Assembly (NCBI GenBank): GCA_049513715.1 | Contig: JBEKVV010000001.1 | Span: forward strand, 736,001 to 800,000 | Direction of reading: 5' to 3' | DNA: 64,000 nt | Source of the DNA: Candidatus Bathyarchaeia archaeon | GTDB taxonomy: Archaea; Thermoproteota; Bathyarchaeia; 40CM-2-53-6 | In this document: in pieces, positions 3,938 to 13,266 of the stretch | How positions within the stretch are numbered: position 1 is the first letter of the stretch | Layout of the letters: each line of letters begins with the position of its first letter | Made by a program: the position numbers and the translations under genes | Notes under the pieces: model-generated | The model's input: only the letters and a program-made list of their open reading frames with translations | The model's database searches: none | What the model was told of the DNA's origin: nothing

Positions 3938-4015
3938 GGGCGGGTAGCCTAGCCTGGATAGGGCACAGGCCTCCGGAGCCTGAGGTCGGGGGTTCGAATC
4001 CCTCCCCGCCCGCCA
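3938..4015 (+). tRNA. tRNA-Arg(CCG), intronless, CCA encoded
   Basis: GGGCGGG/CCCGCCC acceptor stem, CAGGC-CTCCGGA-GCCTG anticodon arm, GGTTCGAATCC T-arm; TATA-like TATAAG near 3895; divergent from argS. Confidence 0.97.
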
Positions 4016-4793: not shown

Positions 4794-6125
4794 TTATTGC
4801 AGCGTAGCGTAGACAAGGTACAGATGATAGGCGCCATAAGCGCCTAGAATAATAGCCTGCAGGTAGACGCTAGATTGAGCGACAAGATAGTATATCAGGT
4901 ACGTGTTTAGCGCCACAATTACCGTCCCGGTTAACAAAGCGAGGAATGTGGTTAAGCGTTTGTTAACAAGCGGGCCCATGAGGTCCTTCTTGGCGGTGAA
5001 TGTTATCAAAGGTATCATGGGTAACGCGATCATCAGGCTGAGCAGTACTTGGCTGTAGACCAACAGGAACAGCGGATCGAAACCTAGGAGCACCGCTATC
5101 GTCGTTGGGAAAACGTTGATAACTCTCGTAATAATCCGCCTGACGGTTTTGTTTACTTTTGTTCCCAGTAACCCGTCCATGATCGCTTGGCCGGCTAATG
5201 TTCCGGTCGTCGAGGAGGCAATGCCGCTGCATAGCAGCGTCACAGCGAACATAATGGCGGCAAGCGATCCGTAGATGGGTATCATTATGCGATACGCCTC
5301 GTCTACTGCTGATATGTTGCTGAACTTCGGGTAGAAGGCCTGGGCGCTCACGATCAGGATGGCCGCATTGACCATTCCGGCGATCGTGAAAGCAACGAGG
5401 CATTCGCCGGTATGGAGCTTCAACAAATGTTTCTTTTCTTCACCGGTTCGGTCCGCCACTTTATCCCTAGTCAGCGTGGAATGTACGTACAGTGCATGTG
5501 GCATAACGGTCGCGCCGATGATGCCAACTATCAAGACTATGTTGTTGGGGTTAAGATCTGGCGAGACGAAGGCGTGAACAAGTTGAGTTACGTCTAGGCC
5601 GGTCACTGCAACTTCGTATAGGAAACCGACGCCGATGATCGATATGAACACCATGAAGAAGTATTCGAGTGACCTGAAACGTCGCGATGTCAGAGCTAGG
5701 AGAATTAGGATGTCAGCGGCTCCGAATAGCGACGCGTAAAGTAGGGGCACGTGGAACAGTATGTTCAGTGCGATGACAGTGCCCAGGTACTCGGCGAGGT
5801 CGGTGGACGCGACTGCAGCTTCGGCCCCAATCCAGTTCAGAAAAATGTCAAACCTTCTTCTGCTCGACTTCTTAAGAGACTCTCTGACGAGTCCCGCCAA
5901 ATCATTGCCCGTTGCTATTCCTAGCTTTCCTGAGAGATACTGGAGGAACATCGCCATGAAATTCGCCATCCAGACAACCCAAAGCAAACCGTAGTTGAAA
6001 GCCGCACCCGCCTGTATGTCTGTCCCGTAGTTCCCTGGGTCCATGTATGCCATACTGGTAATCAATGCCGGACCGGCGAAGATGAAAAGTGCACGATACT
6101 TGCTAACGAATCGCCTGATCTGCAA
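4794..6125 (-). CDS. mntH: Nramp family divalent metal (Mn2+/Fe2+) transporter
   Basis: YMDPGNY and GATVMPHALYVH signature motifs; about 11-12 transmembrane helices. Confidence 0.93.
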   Translation of the reverse strand: MQIRRFVSKYRALFIFAGPALITSMAYMDPGNYGTDIQAGAAFNYGLLWVVWMANFMAMFLQYLSGKLGIATGNDLAGLVRESLKKSSRRRFDIFLNWIGAEAAVASTDLAEYLGTVIALNILFHVPLLYASLFGAADILILLALTSRRFRSLEYFFMVFISIIGVGFLYEVAVTGLDVTQLVHAFVSPDLNPNNIVLIVGIIGATVMPHALYVHSTLTRDKVADRTGEEKKHLLKLHTGECLVAFTIAGMVNAAILIVSAQAFYPKFSNISAVDEAYRIMIPIYGSLAAIMFAVTLLCSGIASSTTGTLAGQAIMDGLLGTKVNKTVRRIITRVINVFPTTIAVLLGFDPLFLLVYSQVLLSLMIALPMIPLITFTAKKDLMGPLVNKRLTTFLALLTGTVIVALNTYLIYYLVAQSSVYLQAIILGAYGAYHLYLVYATLQ

Positions 6126-8106: not shown

Positions 8107-9375
8107 CTAGATGGTGCCACCGAAGCTCAAGTAAAGCAGAATGGCGTTTAACGCTATAATGAATATGACAAAAACGGCTGCAATAATCGTAGTCCGCTTT
8201 TTGTTGACGAATTCACCCATCAACTTCTTGTTCCTCGAAAGAACCAGGAGTGGTACGAGTGGGAGAGGGAGTAGCAGGCTGAGGGCAACTTGGCTATAGA
8301 CCAGAATTGCCAAAGGCTCGATGCCGGCAAGAATTGCTAGGACTACAGGAATCGTGTTGATTAATCTGGTCACTATTCTGCGCGCCCACAGGTTGACCCG
8401 CCGGCCTAACATGCCTTCCATAATGGCTTGACCGGCAATGGTTCCTGTAGTTGAAGAGGAGAGGCCTGAAGCCAGCAAAGTTATTCCGAAGACAATGGCG
8501 GCCACCGGGCCAAACAAAGGTTCGAGGGTCAAGTACGCGTCTTGAATGGTGGCCACCGCTATTCCGTGAGTGGAAAAGGCAGCGGCAGCCATGACCATGA
8601 TGGCTGCGTTGACCAATCCTGCAAAGGTGAACATGATTATGCTCTCTACAGTATGAAGACGCAAAACGCGCCGCTTCGTCTCGACACTTGGTGTTGTGAT
8701 CTTGTCATTGGCGAGAGCCGAGTGTACGAAAAGAGCGTGCGGCATGACAGTCGCGCCGACAACCCCGACCGCGAGAAGAATTCGGTCCGTGGACCATAGA
8801 TTCGGAACAAATGACCCAGCAAGCACGGGACCCAAGGCAGGAGCGGTGATGAAGATTTCGAAAACGTACCCAATACCTATTGTGGAGACGAGCGTCATGA
8901 AGAAGTACTCTAGACGTCGGACGTTTCCGCCGGTCACCCCCAACACGAGCACGACGTCCACGACTGAGAGGAAGGTTCCGTAAAGCAGGGGTATTCTGAA
9001 GAGCAGATTCAGCGCAATCACGGTCCCTAAGAACTCTGCTAGGTCCGTCATGGCGACGGCGACTTCAGCCGTAAGCCAATACGGTATGACGTAGATTGGT
9101 TTCTTCAGGTGTATCCGCATTAGTTCCGGGAGCGAGTGGCCTGTGGCTATGCCAAGTTTACCGGAGAGGTATTGGAGTAGCATGGCCATTATGCCTGCGA
9201 GCCAAACGACCCAGAGCATGCTGTATCCGTAGGTTGCTCCCCCGCTGATGTCTGTGCCATAGTTGCCTGGGTCCATGTACGCAACGCTGACAATGAGGGC
9301 GGGGCCGAAGTAGGCCCAGAGGTCACGCCAAAAGGGTCTCGTTGATTCGACTTGGGTGGACCCAGATTGTGTCAT
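8107..9375 (-). CDS. mntH: Second Nramp family divalent metal transporter
   Basis: YMDPGNY and GATVMPHALFVH motifs; clear paralog of 4794-6125. Confidence 0.93.
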   Translation of the reverse strand: MTQSGSTQVESTRPFWRDLWAYFGPALIVSVAYMDPGNYGTDISGGATYGYSMLWVVWLAGIMAMLLQYLSGKLGIATGHSLPELMRIHLKKPIYVIPYWLTAEVAVAMTDLAEFLGTVIALNLLFRIPLLYGTFLSVVDVVLVLGVTGGNVRRLEYFFMTLVSTIGIGYVFEIFITAPALGPVLAGSFVPNLWSTDRILLAVGVVGATVMPHALFVHSALANDKITTPSVETKRRVLRLHTVESIIMFTFAGLVNAAIMVMAAAAFSTHGIAVATIQDAYLTLEPLFGPVAAIVFGITLLASGLSSSTTGTIAGQAIMEGMLGRRVNLWARRIVTRLINTIPVVLAILAGIEPLAILVYSQVALSLLLPLPLVPLLVLSRNKKLMGEFVNKKRTTIIAAVFVIFIIALNAILLYLSFGGTI

Positions 9376-9599
9376 TCTTTGATTGGCCTCGAAGCATGAC
9401 CATTCTCCAACGTAAGGCAATCTTCCGACGTGGAGAAGCTAGACTAGGGGAACCGTGAGGTTCTAATAAAGCTGGACCGCCCCCCGAGCCTACTGAATAT
9501 CATTCCAAAGCAGAGGGTTTCCATCCAACTGCAACCAGATGTATCTTGAAAGATGATAATGCATATTTGCAGGTGGCTTCGATATCGCACTAGAGAACA

Positions 9600-10873: not shown

Positions 10874-10941
10874 GGAGCAGCCAGCCTCATACCCATACCT
10901 AAAACCCTTGCGGGCCAGTGTGGTGGCAGCGAAGTTTTAGT

Positions 10942-11087
10942 TGGAGCCGGGGATGGGAATTGAACCCACATCAGCGAACGCTGCTTCTATACTGCGGGTT
11001 GCGGCAAGCTTGTATCTACTGCAGCCCGCCGCCTGAACCGTTCGGCCTTCGGTGATCCTTAGGCAAGGCCAAAGGACCAACCCCGGC
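10942..11087 (-). tRNA. tRNA-Cys(GCA) with three introns (8/9: 11079-11048; 37/38: 11018-11000; 48/49: 10988-10970)
   Basis: Removing three BHB-bounded inserts gives a 76-nt cloverleaf: GCCGGGG TG GCCG AACGGTTC AGGC G GCGGG CTGCAGA CCCGC AGTAT GTGGG TTCAATT CCCAT CCCCGGC T CCA. It has the U73 discriminator and an A15-U48 pair. Confidence 0.9.
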
Positions 11088-11164
11088 ATTCGCCCCGGCA
11101 ATAGAACCGTTCACACACAAATCTCTAATCAACCTTTCCAATGTATAGAACTCGTGTACTAGCC

Positions 11165-11471: not shown

Positions 11472-12167
11472 TCAGACCGTAATTACCCGGGCATTTTCAA
11501 TGTCTCGTCGCACCATAGCCTCAAGATCCAAAGCTCCCTCAACCTCGGCAAGCCTGTCACGTCTGGCAGCGGTGCTCGGGTTGCTTGTGGGAACGCCGCA
11601 AGTTGCGACTCCTGGGCGAATTGACGTCTCATATGTTCCAATTGCTTCCGCGTATCGAACAATCTGCTGCTTGTTCATGCCCACTAATGGCCTGAGTACG
11701 GATATTTTGTTCAAAACGCAGTCTGCTGAAGTGATGTTCTGGAGTGTTTGGCTGGCCTTTTGTCCTATAGCGTCACCTGTTACTATGGCGGTGCAGTTTT
11801 CCTTCGTCGCTATTTGTTCTGCAACTCGCAGCATAATGCGTCGAGAGAGAACACATGCATACTTCTCTGGGCACTTGGAAACAATTTCCTGTAAGTCAGG
11901 TGAGTGGGACACTAGATATACGGGAACATCATGAGCGTCTAGATTGCCGCAAACCTTTCTGATTGTTTCGAGGGCTATGCTCTCAGCGGCCTGGTCGCAG
12001 AGTGGGTAATTGTCAAAGTACGCAAAGACCGGGTCGATACCCTTCCTGATTAGGAGCCAAGCTGCTACTGGGGAATCGATTCCGCCTGAGACGAGGAAGA
12101 GCGCGCGGCCTCGGAGCCTGAGGTCCGACTGGGGTCTTCTGATCGGTTTAGGTGAATTAAGAGTCAA
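11472..12167 (-). CDS. thiI: ThiI-family PP-loop sulfurtransferase (catalytic domain only, no THUMP)
   Basis: SGGIDSPVAAW, TGDAIGQKASQTL.N, LRPL.G..K; only 231 aa. Confidence 0.85.
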   Translation of the reverse strand: MTLNSPKPIRRPQSDLRLRGRALFLVSGGIDSPVAAWLLIRKGIDPVFAYFDNYPLCDQAAESIALETIRKVCGNLDAHDVPVYLVSHSPDLQEIVSKCPEKYACVLSRRIMLRVAEQIATKENCTAIVTGDAIGQKASQTLQNITSADCVLNKISVLRPLVGMNKQQIVRYAEAIGTYETSIRPGVATCGVPTSNPSTAARRDRLAEVEGALDLEAMVRRDIENARVITV

Positions 12168-12173
12168 GCTGCA

Positions 12174-13208
12174 TCATTTCGTCTCAATGATTTTCGTAAT
12201 ATGGCGGTAGACTTCTAGGGCTTCGTCTTCGGTGCCCACGTTCTTGATGAGCATTCTCCCCTTCTTGAAAACGCTCACTTCATGCCCCTCGTAATCAAAT
12301 ACGATGAGCATTGGCGTAGTCAGGAGAACCTTATGGGTTTTCCCAATTGATTTCGTCAGCGCATCCAAGTTTAGCGACATAGGTAGCTCGGGATTTACAT
12401 TGGCTGTGTTGGATCCGCACAGCCAAGCTAGCCTTTTGGCGATTTGCATGGGCTTGCGGGCTTTTATTTGGCAAACCTCGCAGTCCGGCCTGATGCTTAA
12501 TTCAACGGTTCTGAATTCTGACTGGGCGAAATCGAAGACCATTAGTTTAGCCTTTGAGTGAGGTTCGATTCCCACGAGAACCTTTACCGTTTCCATGGCC
12601 TGAATTGCACCCACGATGCCTGTTGTGGCTCCAAGAACTCCGCGGATTTCGCATGTGGGCAAGTCCGCATCGTCCAATCCGGGTAGGATGCATTCGAGGC
12701 ATGGGGTCTCTGGGCTTCTGAAGACTGCTACGTTTCCTTCCATTCCAATCGCACCACCAAACACGAAAGGAATCTTGTGCTCCACACAATAGCGGTTCAC
12801 CACGTACCTTGTTCGCATGTTGTCCAAGCCGTCCACTACACAGTCAGAGTCAGCGATTATGGAGCGGATGTTGTCGGGTCCCAGGTTCTCTGGGAATGGC
12901 TCCGTTCTGATTTCAGGGTTGACTTCTTTGATCCGTCGGGCCGCCGCCTCGACTTTGGGGTAGCGTAGATCGTTTAGTGAGTATAGGGCCTGACGGTGCA
13001 GGTTGTTGAACTCAACAGTGTCTTGGTCAACAAGTTTCAACGTCCCCACTCCAGCCAAGGCGAGAAATAGCGCCGAAATGCTGCCTAAGCCGCCCAAGCC
13101 GACGATTGTGATCTTGGAACCCCGTAGCTTCTCCTGGCCAAGCTTCCCAAGCTCACTCAGGATTGTCTGGCGGCTGTAAAATTCTGAACTGTTGAACTGC
13201 ATGCTCAT
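12174..13208 (-). CDS. ThiF/MoeB/UbaA family E1-like adenylyltransferase
   Basis: GLGGLG, D.VEFNNLHRQ, DGLDN..TR, PCLEC, active-site TC..RGV, CEVC. Confidence 0.92.
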   Translation of the reverse strand: MSMQFNSSEFYSRQTILSELGKLGQEKLRGSKITIVGLGGLGSISALFLALAGVGTLKLVDQDTVEFNNLHRQALYSLNDLRYPKVEAAARRIKEVNPEIRTEPFPENLGPDNIRSIIADSDCVVDGLDNMRTRYVVNRYCVEHKIPFVFGGAIGMEGNVAVFRSPETPCLECILPGLDDADLPTCEIRGVLGATTGIVGAIQAMETVKVLVGIEPHSKAKLMVFDFAQSEFRTVELSIRPDCEVCQIKARKPMQIAKRLAWLCGSNTANVNPELPMSLNLDALTKSIGKTHKVLLTTPMLIVFDYEGHEVSVFKKGRMLIKNVGTEDEALEVYRHITKIIETK

Positions 13209-13266
13209 TGACGGTCGGTAAGATAGATGGCAGAAGGAGGCTTTCAGCATATGGGCGCAGCTTGGT

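Follow-up and report, generated by a model that had tools for sequence, protein, structure and literature searches.

A copy of the acceptor 5' strand in the leader of an archaeal triple-intron tRNA-Cys gene, a candidate surrogate strand for splicing at position 8/9

Introduction

How can a tRNA gene tolerate an intron directly behind its acceptor stem, if the BHB motif at which the intron would be cut draws on the same nucleotides as the stem? This question is raised by a tRNA-Cys(GCA) gene on the minus strand (11087-10942) of the window, i.e. the whole 64,000-nucleotide stretch of DNA from a Candidatus Bathyarchaeia archaeon that we analyzed. An earlier note on this DNA had described a gene with three introns and had concluded that the acceptor stem is blocked until the first of them is removed. 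Positions in the tRNA follow the standard numbering, and in tRNA maturation RtcB joins the exons and RNase P removes the 5' leader. We compared the gene with its orthologues and with other tRNA genes of the same and related genomes, and we propose that a short copy of the acceptor strand in the leader holds the partner strand while the introns are cut.

Results

A tRNA-Cys gene with three introns

The gene has four exons (8, 29, 11 and 28 nt) and three introns (32, 19 and 19 nt). Together with its leader, it is laid out as follows.

11125..11138, minus strand: putative BRE and TATA-like box (box at 11132-11125), proposed from the sequence and the leaders of orthologues
11093..11099, minus strand: leader copy of tRNA nt 1-7 (GCCGGGG), the proposed surrogate acceptor 5' strand, from conservation and predicted pairing with nt 66-72
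11088..11092, minus strand: spacer of 5 nt between the leader copy and G1, free in sequence (4-13 nt in 42 Cys loci)
11080..11087, minus strand: exon 1, nt 1-8, giving the central helix (3-6) and the 5' bulge of the 8/9 BHB (sequence, orthologues)
11048..11079, minus strand: intron 1 at 8/9, 32 nt, 7-bp intron helix, central helix 3/4 (motif and orthologues)
11019..11047, minus strand: exon 2, nt 9-37, with the D-arm, anticodon 5' strand and anticodon GCA (splicing in silico; single genome copy)
11000..11018, minus strand: intron 2 at the canonical 37/38 position, 19 nt, central helix 3/4; its bases 11010-11001 can pair with exon nt 24-33
10989..10999, minus strand: exon 3, nt 38-48 (splicing in silico, orthologues)
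10970..10988, minus strand: intron 3 at 48/49, 19 nt, strict hBHBh' motif (40/40 orthologous loci)
10942..10969, minus strand: exon 4, nt 49-76, with the T-arm, acceptor 3' strand, U73 and encoded CCA (splicing in silico)

Spliced in silico, the exons give exactly the 76-base tRNA-Cys that the earlier note had described: ARAGORN calls the intron-free sequence tRNA-Cys(gca), with U8, U73 and an encoded CCA. On the raw window ARAGORN misses the gene, Rfam reports nothing above family cut-off between 10000 and 12000, and relaxed ARAGORN settings return mostly noise across the whole genome. A blind BHB-guided search ranked these three introns at the top, tied with a four-cut alternative that places a C at position 9; C9 occurs in no listed Cys locus. 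The four exons are collinear within 146 nt, which separates the gene from split and permuted tRNAs.

A search for another intact tRNA-Cys(GCA) in the assembly found none: exon 2 has a single match in the genome at up to 7 mismatches, and our census of the genome's tRNA genes holds one Cys gene among 36. Since exon 2 is single-copy and markers put the completeness of the genome (11 contigs, not closed) at 99.4%, the organism most likely has no other tRNA-Cys. Contigs from two of four public DNA runs, which may be the source of this DNA, span the stretch unbroken and without differences.

Orthologues were found in 54 of 61 genomes by a direct search, and a leader-blind pattern search of 301 class members added more, to a total of 81 distinct Cys loci, of which 77 were parsed and four dropped (cut short or unreadable). 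The parsed loci carry all three introns (33), none (16), 37/38 only (14), 37/38 and 48/49 (7), 8/9 only (6) or 8/9 and 37/38 (1). The 8/9 intron, 16-33 nt long in the relatives, is absent from 37 of the 77. Relatives thus exist in which each junction is intron-free, so that every spliced junction is found somewhere as plain DNA. Among 14 Cys loci the exons differ by 0-1 base while the introns diverge freely in length and sequence, which argues against an unspliced pseudogene whose function is covered by a cysteine tRNA gene missing from the assembly. The division into 11 contigs and a mismatch in two of the three motifs would suit such a pseudogene, but the motifs are kept with compensating changes and no second Cys gene turned up in a genome of this completeness, and we regard this reading as very improbable. 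We are nearly certain that the gene is real and spliced. It would be the organism's working tRNA-Cys(GCA) gene: the structure is observed, and the splicing is inferred from conservation and established archaeal biochemistry.

Interrupted tRNA genes are common in this genome. Nearly all of its tRNA genes are interrupted, many of them several times, and Arg(CCG), at 3938-4015 of the window, is the only one of the 36 census genes with plain tRNA length; this intron load seems comparable with that of Asgard and Thermoproteales genomes. Several further observations concern the surroundings of the Cys gene. A ThiI-like gene (below family cut-off) and an E1/MoeB-like gene adjoin it on the minus strand (window 11472-13250), and 19 of 29 related loci, one of them without the 8/9 intron, also have a ThiI-like gene close to the Cys gene. 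ThiI thiolates U8, and the meeting of a ThiI-like neighbour with a U8 at the 8/9 junction is probably a coincidence. Farther off, two open reading frames (4794-6125 and 8107-9420), presumably Nramp-like transporters, flank a third that we take, from its motifs, to be isocitrate/isopropylmalate dehydrogenase-like. Public run X17 contains contigs that part ways immediately after the tRNA 3' end (window 10926-10971), and in one relative's contig, which lacks the 37/38 and 48/49 introns, the last 18 bases of tRNA-Cys are repeated about 2 kb away. From these sequences, the Cys gene resembles a site of integration. Elsewhere in the genome there are also solitary or repeated 3' halves of tRNAs (a T-arm without a matching 5' part) that resemble att-site remnants (G000:C1:892263-892314, C5:206519-206570, C3:166055, C3:181344, C3:427307, C4:149704, C4:150377 and C4:150562).

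Intron motifs, junctions and processing enzymes

We gauged the strength of each motif against 200,000 shuffles of its intron. The 48/49 motif has a central helix of 4/4 and three intron pairs (shuffle fraction 0.0008), the 8/9 motif 3/4 and seven intron pairs (0.0003), and the 37/38 motif 3/4 and two intron pairs (0.012). The near-perfect 48/49 motif and the imperfect 37/38 helix of the earlier note therefore stand, the former strict in 40/40 loci, but the 8/9 motif is less regular than described there: its central helix is broken by G6, which faces an A in 42/42 Cys loci and keeps the motif short of the strict hBHBh' form. It does have the make-up of a relaxed BHB/BHL intron, with three of four central pairs, a 7-bp intron helix and a 2-bp exon helix. 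Because three central pairs are frequent by chance, according to section 2.4 of 10.64898/2026.10.13.758758, the claim for 8/9 is carried by the flanks and the orthologues. At the same 8/9 position in other isoacceptors, the central helix is 4/4 in 15/15 Leu and 19/47 Asn loci. Placing intron 1 at 9/10 or 10/11 was discarded on inspection, as the central helix then drops to at most two pairs.

For the 48/49 intron, four of four central and four of four exon-helix pairs are possible in 40/40 loci, the first two intron pairs in 35/40, and pair 43 occurs as C-G in 28, U-G in 8 and U-A in 4 of the 40. On the window sequence alone, intron 3 can slide between 46/47 and 48/49. Across relatives the last two bases of the intron vary and the two bases before it do not; when the cut is set at 48/49, positions 15 and 48 covary (A-U in 26, U-A in 12 and G-A in 2 of 40 loci). 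This covariation and the base variation among orthologues fix intron 3 at 48/49, and 46/47 is ruled out. The orthologues and the blind search together bear out the three BHB-type introns at 8/9, 37/38 and 48/49. By the features tested they belong among archaeal BHB introns, 48/49 as a strict and 8/9 and 37/38 as relaxed members, and would work in the same way.

The enzymes that such introns need are encoded in the genome. It has two EndA subunits, of the (alpha-beta)2 type, with (alpha-beta)2 catalytic chains as their best PDB matches. The catalytic subunit is closest to the A. pernix alpha chain and carries Lys at the K44 position, which lies in the loop that gives EndA its broad specificity (the CSL lysine; PMC3241643). 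The host thus has the broad-specificity endonuclease with CSL lysine that goes with relaxed BHB/BHL introns, and RtcB and RNase P RNA are present as well.

A copy of the acceptor 5' strand in the leader

Upstream of the coordinates covered by the earlier note, at 11099-11093, the leader holds an exact copy of nt 1-7 that starts 12 nt before G1. Counting as a copy any match of at least 6/7 within 40 nt upstream, we found it in 42/42 Cys loci with an 8/9 intron (41 exact) versus 0/39 without. The same association holds for other isoacceptors: copies are present in 18/18 Glu loci with the intron versus 3/11 without, in 24/24 versus 1/4 Trp loci, in 14/15 versus 1/12 Leu loci, and in 47/47 intron-bearing Asn loci, our sample having no intron-free Asn locus. 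The sole exception among 146 intron-bearing loci is a Leu-type locus with an 8/9 intron and a best match of 5/7 (L149, genome G017). Among intron-free loci, 5 of 66 retain a copy; six loci (L084, L085, L087, L126, L135 and L143) lack the 5' intron but still show a copy, exact or decayed, as would be expected if the intron was lost first and the copy decayed afterwards.

In the organism's own genome, four further genes have an intron motif that uses nt 1-8, namely Asn and Leu(CAG) at 8/9 and Glu(CUC) and Trp at 10/11. All 5/5 genes with an 8/9 or 10/11 intron copy their own, different acceptor strand (four exactly, one at 6/7), while among the other tRNA genes 1/31 has a copy at 6/7 and 0/31 an exact one (Fisher p 1.6e-5, descriptive only, these being genes of one genome). 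The BHB-guided search gave three introns for Asn (L033), four for Leu-CAG (L034) and four for Glu-CUC (L035), each gene (all in genome G000) having its own-strand leader copy. The search did not resolve the tRNA-Trp(CCA) gene (L036; G000:C1, minus strand, G1 at 372443), which has five introns, after mature nt 10, 29, 38, 46 and 59 (28, 18, 59, 19 and 26 nt); spliced by hand, it yields a 76-nt product that ARAGORN calls Trp. Its 59-nt anticodon intron includes a word resembling a C-box and a segment complementary to the anticodon region, features that we take to resemble those of guide-bearing Trp introns; a further intron may be nested in it.

Related genomes are not independent, and because several of the queries used on them included the leader, these counts lean toward the copy; the leader-blind patterns (Asn, class-wide Cys and phylum-wide) do not. 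In the leader-blind Asn scan, which returned at least 120 loci, 33 loci have an Asn 3' end and 33/33 of these have a copy (32 exact). Two more loci of the same intron family, with no 3' end found in the flank, also have one, and 11 loosely flagged loci without a 3' end are without a copy. As a chance baseline, 74 GC-rich chance loci gave a 6/7 match in 17 cases and an exact one in a single case. Of the tRNA-bearing records with listed names, 21/23 are Bathyarchaeia or Bathyarchaeota, which points to that class for this genome too. Two Asn loci and one other tRNA from different orders also combine an 8/9 intron with a copy; the phylum-wide pattern cannot match the organism's own Asn gene, so its 2/401 is no measure of distribution. 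In one long-variable-arm tRNA of another order (L308, genome G079), the 8/9 intron shares its last six bases with its counterpart in Cys (window 11053-11048), and so does the Glu 10/11 intron. Judging from these shared ends, one intron may possibly have been transposed between genes.

The copy is conserved where its surroundings are not. In Cys its positions are 98-100% conserved versus 38-71% for the flanks, and in the five isoacceptors conservation at positions 1-6 is 92-100%, against drift in the spacer length (4-19 nt) and at most of the neighbouring positions. Within positions 1-6, intron-bearing loci show four variants, all C5-to-U with pairing to G68 kept; position 7 is less constrained. 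N73 finds a pairing partner in the base just ahead of the copy in 18/18 Glu, 14/14 Leu, 18/21 Trp and 35/44 Asn loci; in Cys, where N73 is U73, it does so in only 1/37 loci. Measured from the start of the TATA-like box, G1 of this gene is 45 nt away and the copy 33 nt, and close relatives show a cleaner TATA. A crude TATA caller gave median distances of 45 nt to G1 and 31 nt to the copy in copy-bearing Cys loci (n=41), and of 33 nt to G1 in intron-free ones (n=23). This spacing (31 nt to the copy versus 33 nt to an intron-free G1) suggests that the transcript probably begins just ahead of the copy.

Promoter spacing of this kind would also fit an origin by duplication or insertion, and the copy might then be a functionless scar, a 5' end duplicated when the intron was inserted and neutral ever since. 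The copies that persist in some intron-free loci would agree with this. However, a neutral scar should not keep positions 1-6 in five isoacceptors amid drifting neighbours and spacers, nor should its internal variants preserve pairing; where the intron has been lost the copy has decayed (L135, L126 and L085), and the arrangement is present in two orders. We therefore give little credence to a scar.

The spacing likewise matches a gene that begins at the upstream copy, which would then be the true exon (nt 1-7), with the spacer and second copy forming a fourth, 12-nt intron at 7/8 and U8 a one-base exon. In Cys, the palindrome of nt 2-5 indeed gives a central helix of 4/4 at 7/8 in 42/42 loci, but this follows automatically from duplicating a palindrome. 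Cut positions 0-7 give 4/4 in at most 4/47 Asn, 1/18 Glu and 3/24 Trp loci, and the best for Leu is 7/14 at 5/6; thus, an acceptor-stem intron of the 3/4 type made of copy and spacer was rejected after eight cut positions, none of them conserved across the five families and only the Cys palindrome standing out at 7/8. Copy position 7 is unpaired with C66 in 14/14 Leu and 8/24 Trp loci, which a mature stem would hardly tolerate, and a 12-nt segment leaves no room for an intron helix, with spacers as short as 4 nt. A fourth intron is thus improbable, if slightly less so than a scar, and we return to the copy as part of the leader.

Folding models of the copy

With the leader in place, the modelled Cys precursor has nt 66-72 paired to the copy (p=0.95) and lacks the real acceptor stem, which forms with p=1.00 once the leader is left out. 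The leader brings the energy needed to impose the 8/9 motif down from 13.6 to 6.4 kcal/mol; among 60 shuffled leaders the mean was 10.7, and the lowest value, 6.1, lay below the native one. Even with the copy, the Cys 8/9 central helix is rare in the model (p 0.02-0.03; 0.03 in the window), so that the enzyme would have to capture it. When the copy was replaced by A7 in the first 14 usable loci per family, the cost of the central helix went up in 14/14 Cys (median 6.4), 14/14 Glu (median 2.4, the helix probability dropping from 0.93 to 0.09), 14/14 Trp (median 0.4) and 11/14 Asn loci (median 1.9); for Leu there was no folding gain from the copy (8/14, median 0.0). Part of any such gain is built in, as every copy competes for nt 66-72. 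The folding models support the surrogate idea for Cys and Glu, not for Leu.

In Leu and Trp the copy nevertheless pairs with nt 66-72 at p=0.96-0.99. Pairing with no BHB folding gain in Leu and little in Trp is what one would expect if the main task of the copy were to give the unspliced precursor a tRNA-like shape, as a help in trimming the 3' end, repairing CCA or avoiding decay, and not to accelerate cleavage at 8/9; in that case the BHB might arise co-transcriptionally, ahead of the synthesis of nt 66-72. The position of the copy, which relative to the TATA-like box sits where intron-free genes have G1, would suit this as well. Yet the predicted gain for Cys and Glu is large, and introns elsewhere break the fold too while 30/31 genes with such introns are without a copy, which tracks only motifs that use nt 1-8. 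We regard a role mainly in end processing or stability as unlikely, and consider it quite probable that the copy functions as a surrogate strand.

A surrogate must eventually yield to the real strand. In the spliced RNA with the D, anticodon and T stems fixed, the real strand beats the copy by 0.88 to 0.10; if no stem is fixed, the model folds the tRNA wrongly and favours the copy (p=0.94).

The order in which the introns are removed can be approached from their motifs. The 48/49 motif needs nt 39-46 and 50-53 and can thus form only while the anticodon and T stems are open. In loci of this genus, nt 24-33 can base-pair with the 3' half of the intron at 37/38 (model p 0.94-0.99); the pairing run is at least 9 in 8/13 parsed same-genus loci and at most two pairs in 20 other parsed loci, 48 of the 81 Cys loci being unparsed in this comparison. 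In the model this pairing makes the 48/49 motif cheaper (5.0 instead of 7.6), which suggests that 37/38 may be removed last, as in C. merolae. The 37/38 motif itself becomes no easier in the model once the other introns are gone (its cost changes from 6.8 to 9.8-10.0), and folding energies do not fix the splicing order.

Discussion

For the 8/9 motif to form, nt 1-6 must be available; left to themselves they would be tied up in an acceptor stem of 7 bp, all of them GC, and this would be the reason why the transcript starts with a spare nt 1-7. We propose that the copy pairs with nt 66-72 as a surrogate stem and leaves exon 1 free for the 8/9 motif; here the co-occurrence of copy and intron is observed and the pairing predicted. 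The three introns would then be cut at their BHB motifs by the (alpha-beta)2 EndA and the ends joined by RtcB, with the 37/38 intron perhaps the last to go. Once the 8/9 intron is gone, the real strand would retake nt 66-72 by strand exchange, and RNase P would cut before G1, discarding leader and copy. The earlier note was right that the 8/9 motif occupies nt 1-6, but its block of the acceptor stem is incomplete, as the leader copy can form a surrogate stem with nt 66-72. Taken together, a working gene whose leader copy frees exon 1 for the BHB, followed by strand exchange and RNase P cleavage, is the best explanation of the locus and in our view a likely one.

With somewhat more reserve, we lean towards a general archaeal rule: where an intron motif needs the acceptor 5' strand, the gene would encode in cis a disposable leader surrogate of 6-7 nt, with a programmed strand exchange that runs from surrogate stem, EndA cut and RtcB joining to displacement by the real strand and the RNase P cut. 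This would have arisen for five isoacceptors in one genome. The canonical Cys intron may be a second, internal decoy, the two non-canonical motifs being displayed together before 37/38 is removed.

A surrogate strand would explain why a tRNA can accommodate an intron immediately after its most stable helix, and the 5' leader, usually viewed as a by-product, would gain a sequence-specific folding job. The model predicts an intermediate with two competing acceptor strands. For intron gain, it would mean that insertions close to the 5' end may persist only where that end has been duplicated as well. For annotation, such genes are missed by standard tools (ARAGORN finds none at this locus), and the copy can mislead calls of the 5' end.

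Comparison with known systems

Three introns per tRNA gene have long been known (PMC4033280, PMC3239211, PMC8450103), Thermoproteales having up to three (PMC4033280), and up to five are reported from Asgard archaea (10.64898/2026.10.13.758758). The positions named by Yoshihisa 2014 run from 20/21 to 59/60 'etc.', with 3/4 as the extreme (PMC4090602). In the open-access literature, with key intron catalogues outside its coverage, we came across no report of an acceptor-strand copy in a tRNA leader and no mention of introns at 8/9 or 48/49 in the portions available, and we found no open-access paper on Bathyarchaeia tRNA introns. Triple introns are thus known, the unusual positions extend a known class only modestly, and the conserved surrogate strand is the surprising part.

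A close likeness is to the non-canonical and multiple BHB introns of Thermoproteales (PMC4090602; Fujishima and Kanai 2014, PMC4033280), which in the text at hand are similarly short, hBHBh' or relaxed, up to three per gene, and served by an (alpha-beta)2 EndA with a Crenarchaea-specific loop. Unlike our gene, the same portions of these accounts do not list 8/9, 10/11 or 48/49 among the positions given and mention no leader copy. The multi-intron tRNAs of Asgard archaea belong to a different lineage, and the main text on them, in which positions are not given, does not contain the word 'leader' (10.64898/2026.10.13.758758). Ordered removal of BHB introns is described for C. merolae, where the order follows from motifs that are incompatible with one another or with the cloverleaf, and 37/38 is the last substrate (PMC3728597), and nested BHB motifs are noted for tRNAscan-SE 2.0 (PMC8450103). 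These cases, as far as the cited portions describe them, involve no helper strand outside the tRNA. The wider comparison literature (PMC3218864, PMC3293823, PMC3400036, PMC3241643) includes split and permuted tRNAs, whose leader-trailer helices offer, in the parts available, a parallel to the copy: there too, discarded flanking sequence pairs to set up a BHB junction (PMC3218864, PMC3293823). In those tRNAs the flanks pair with each other and join two pieces, whereas here the leader mimics an exon strand and would pair in cis with that exon's own partner.
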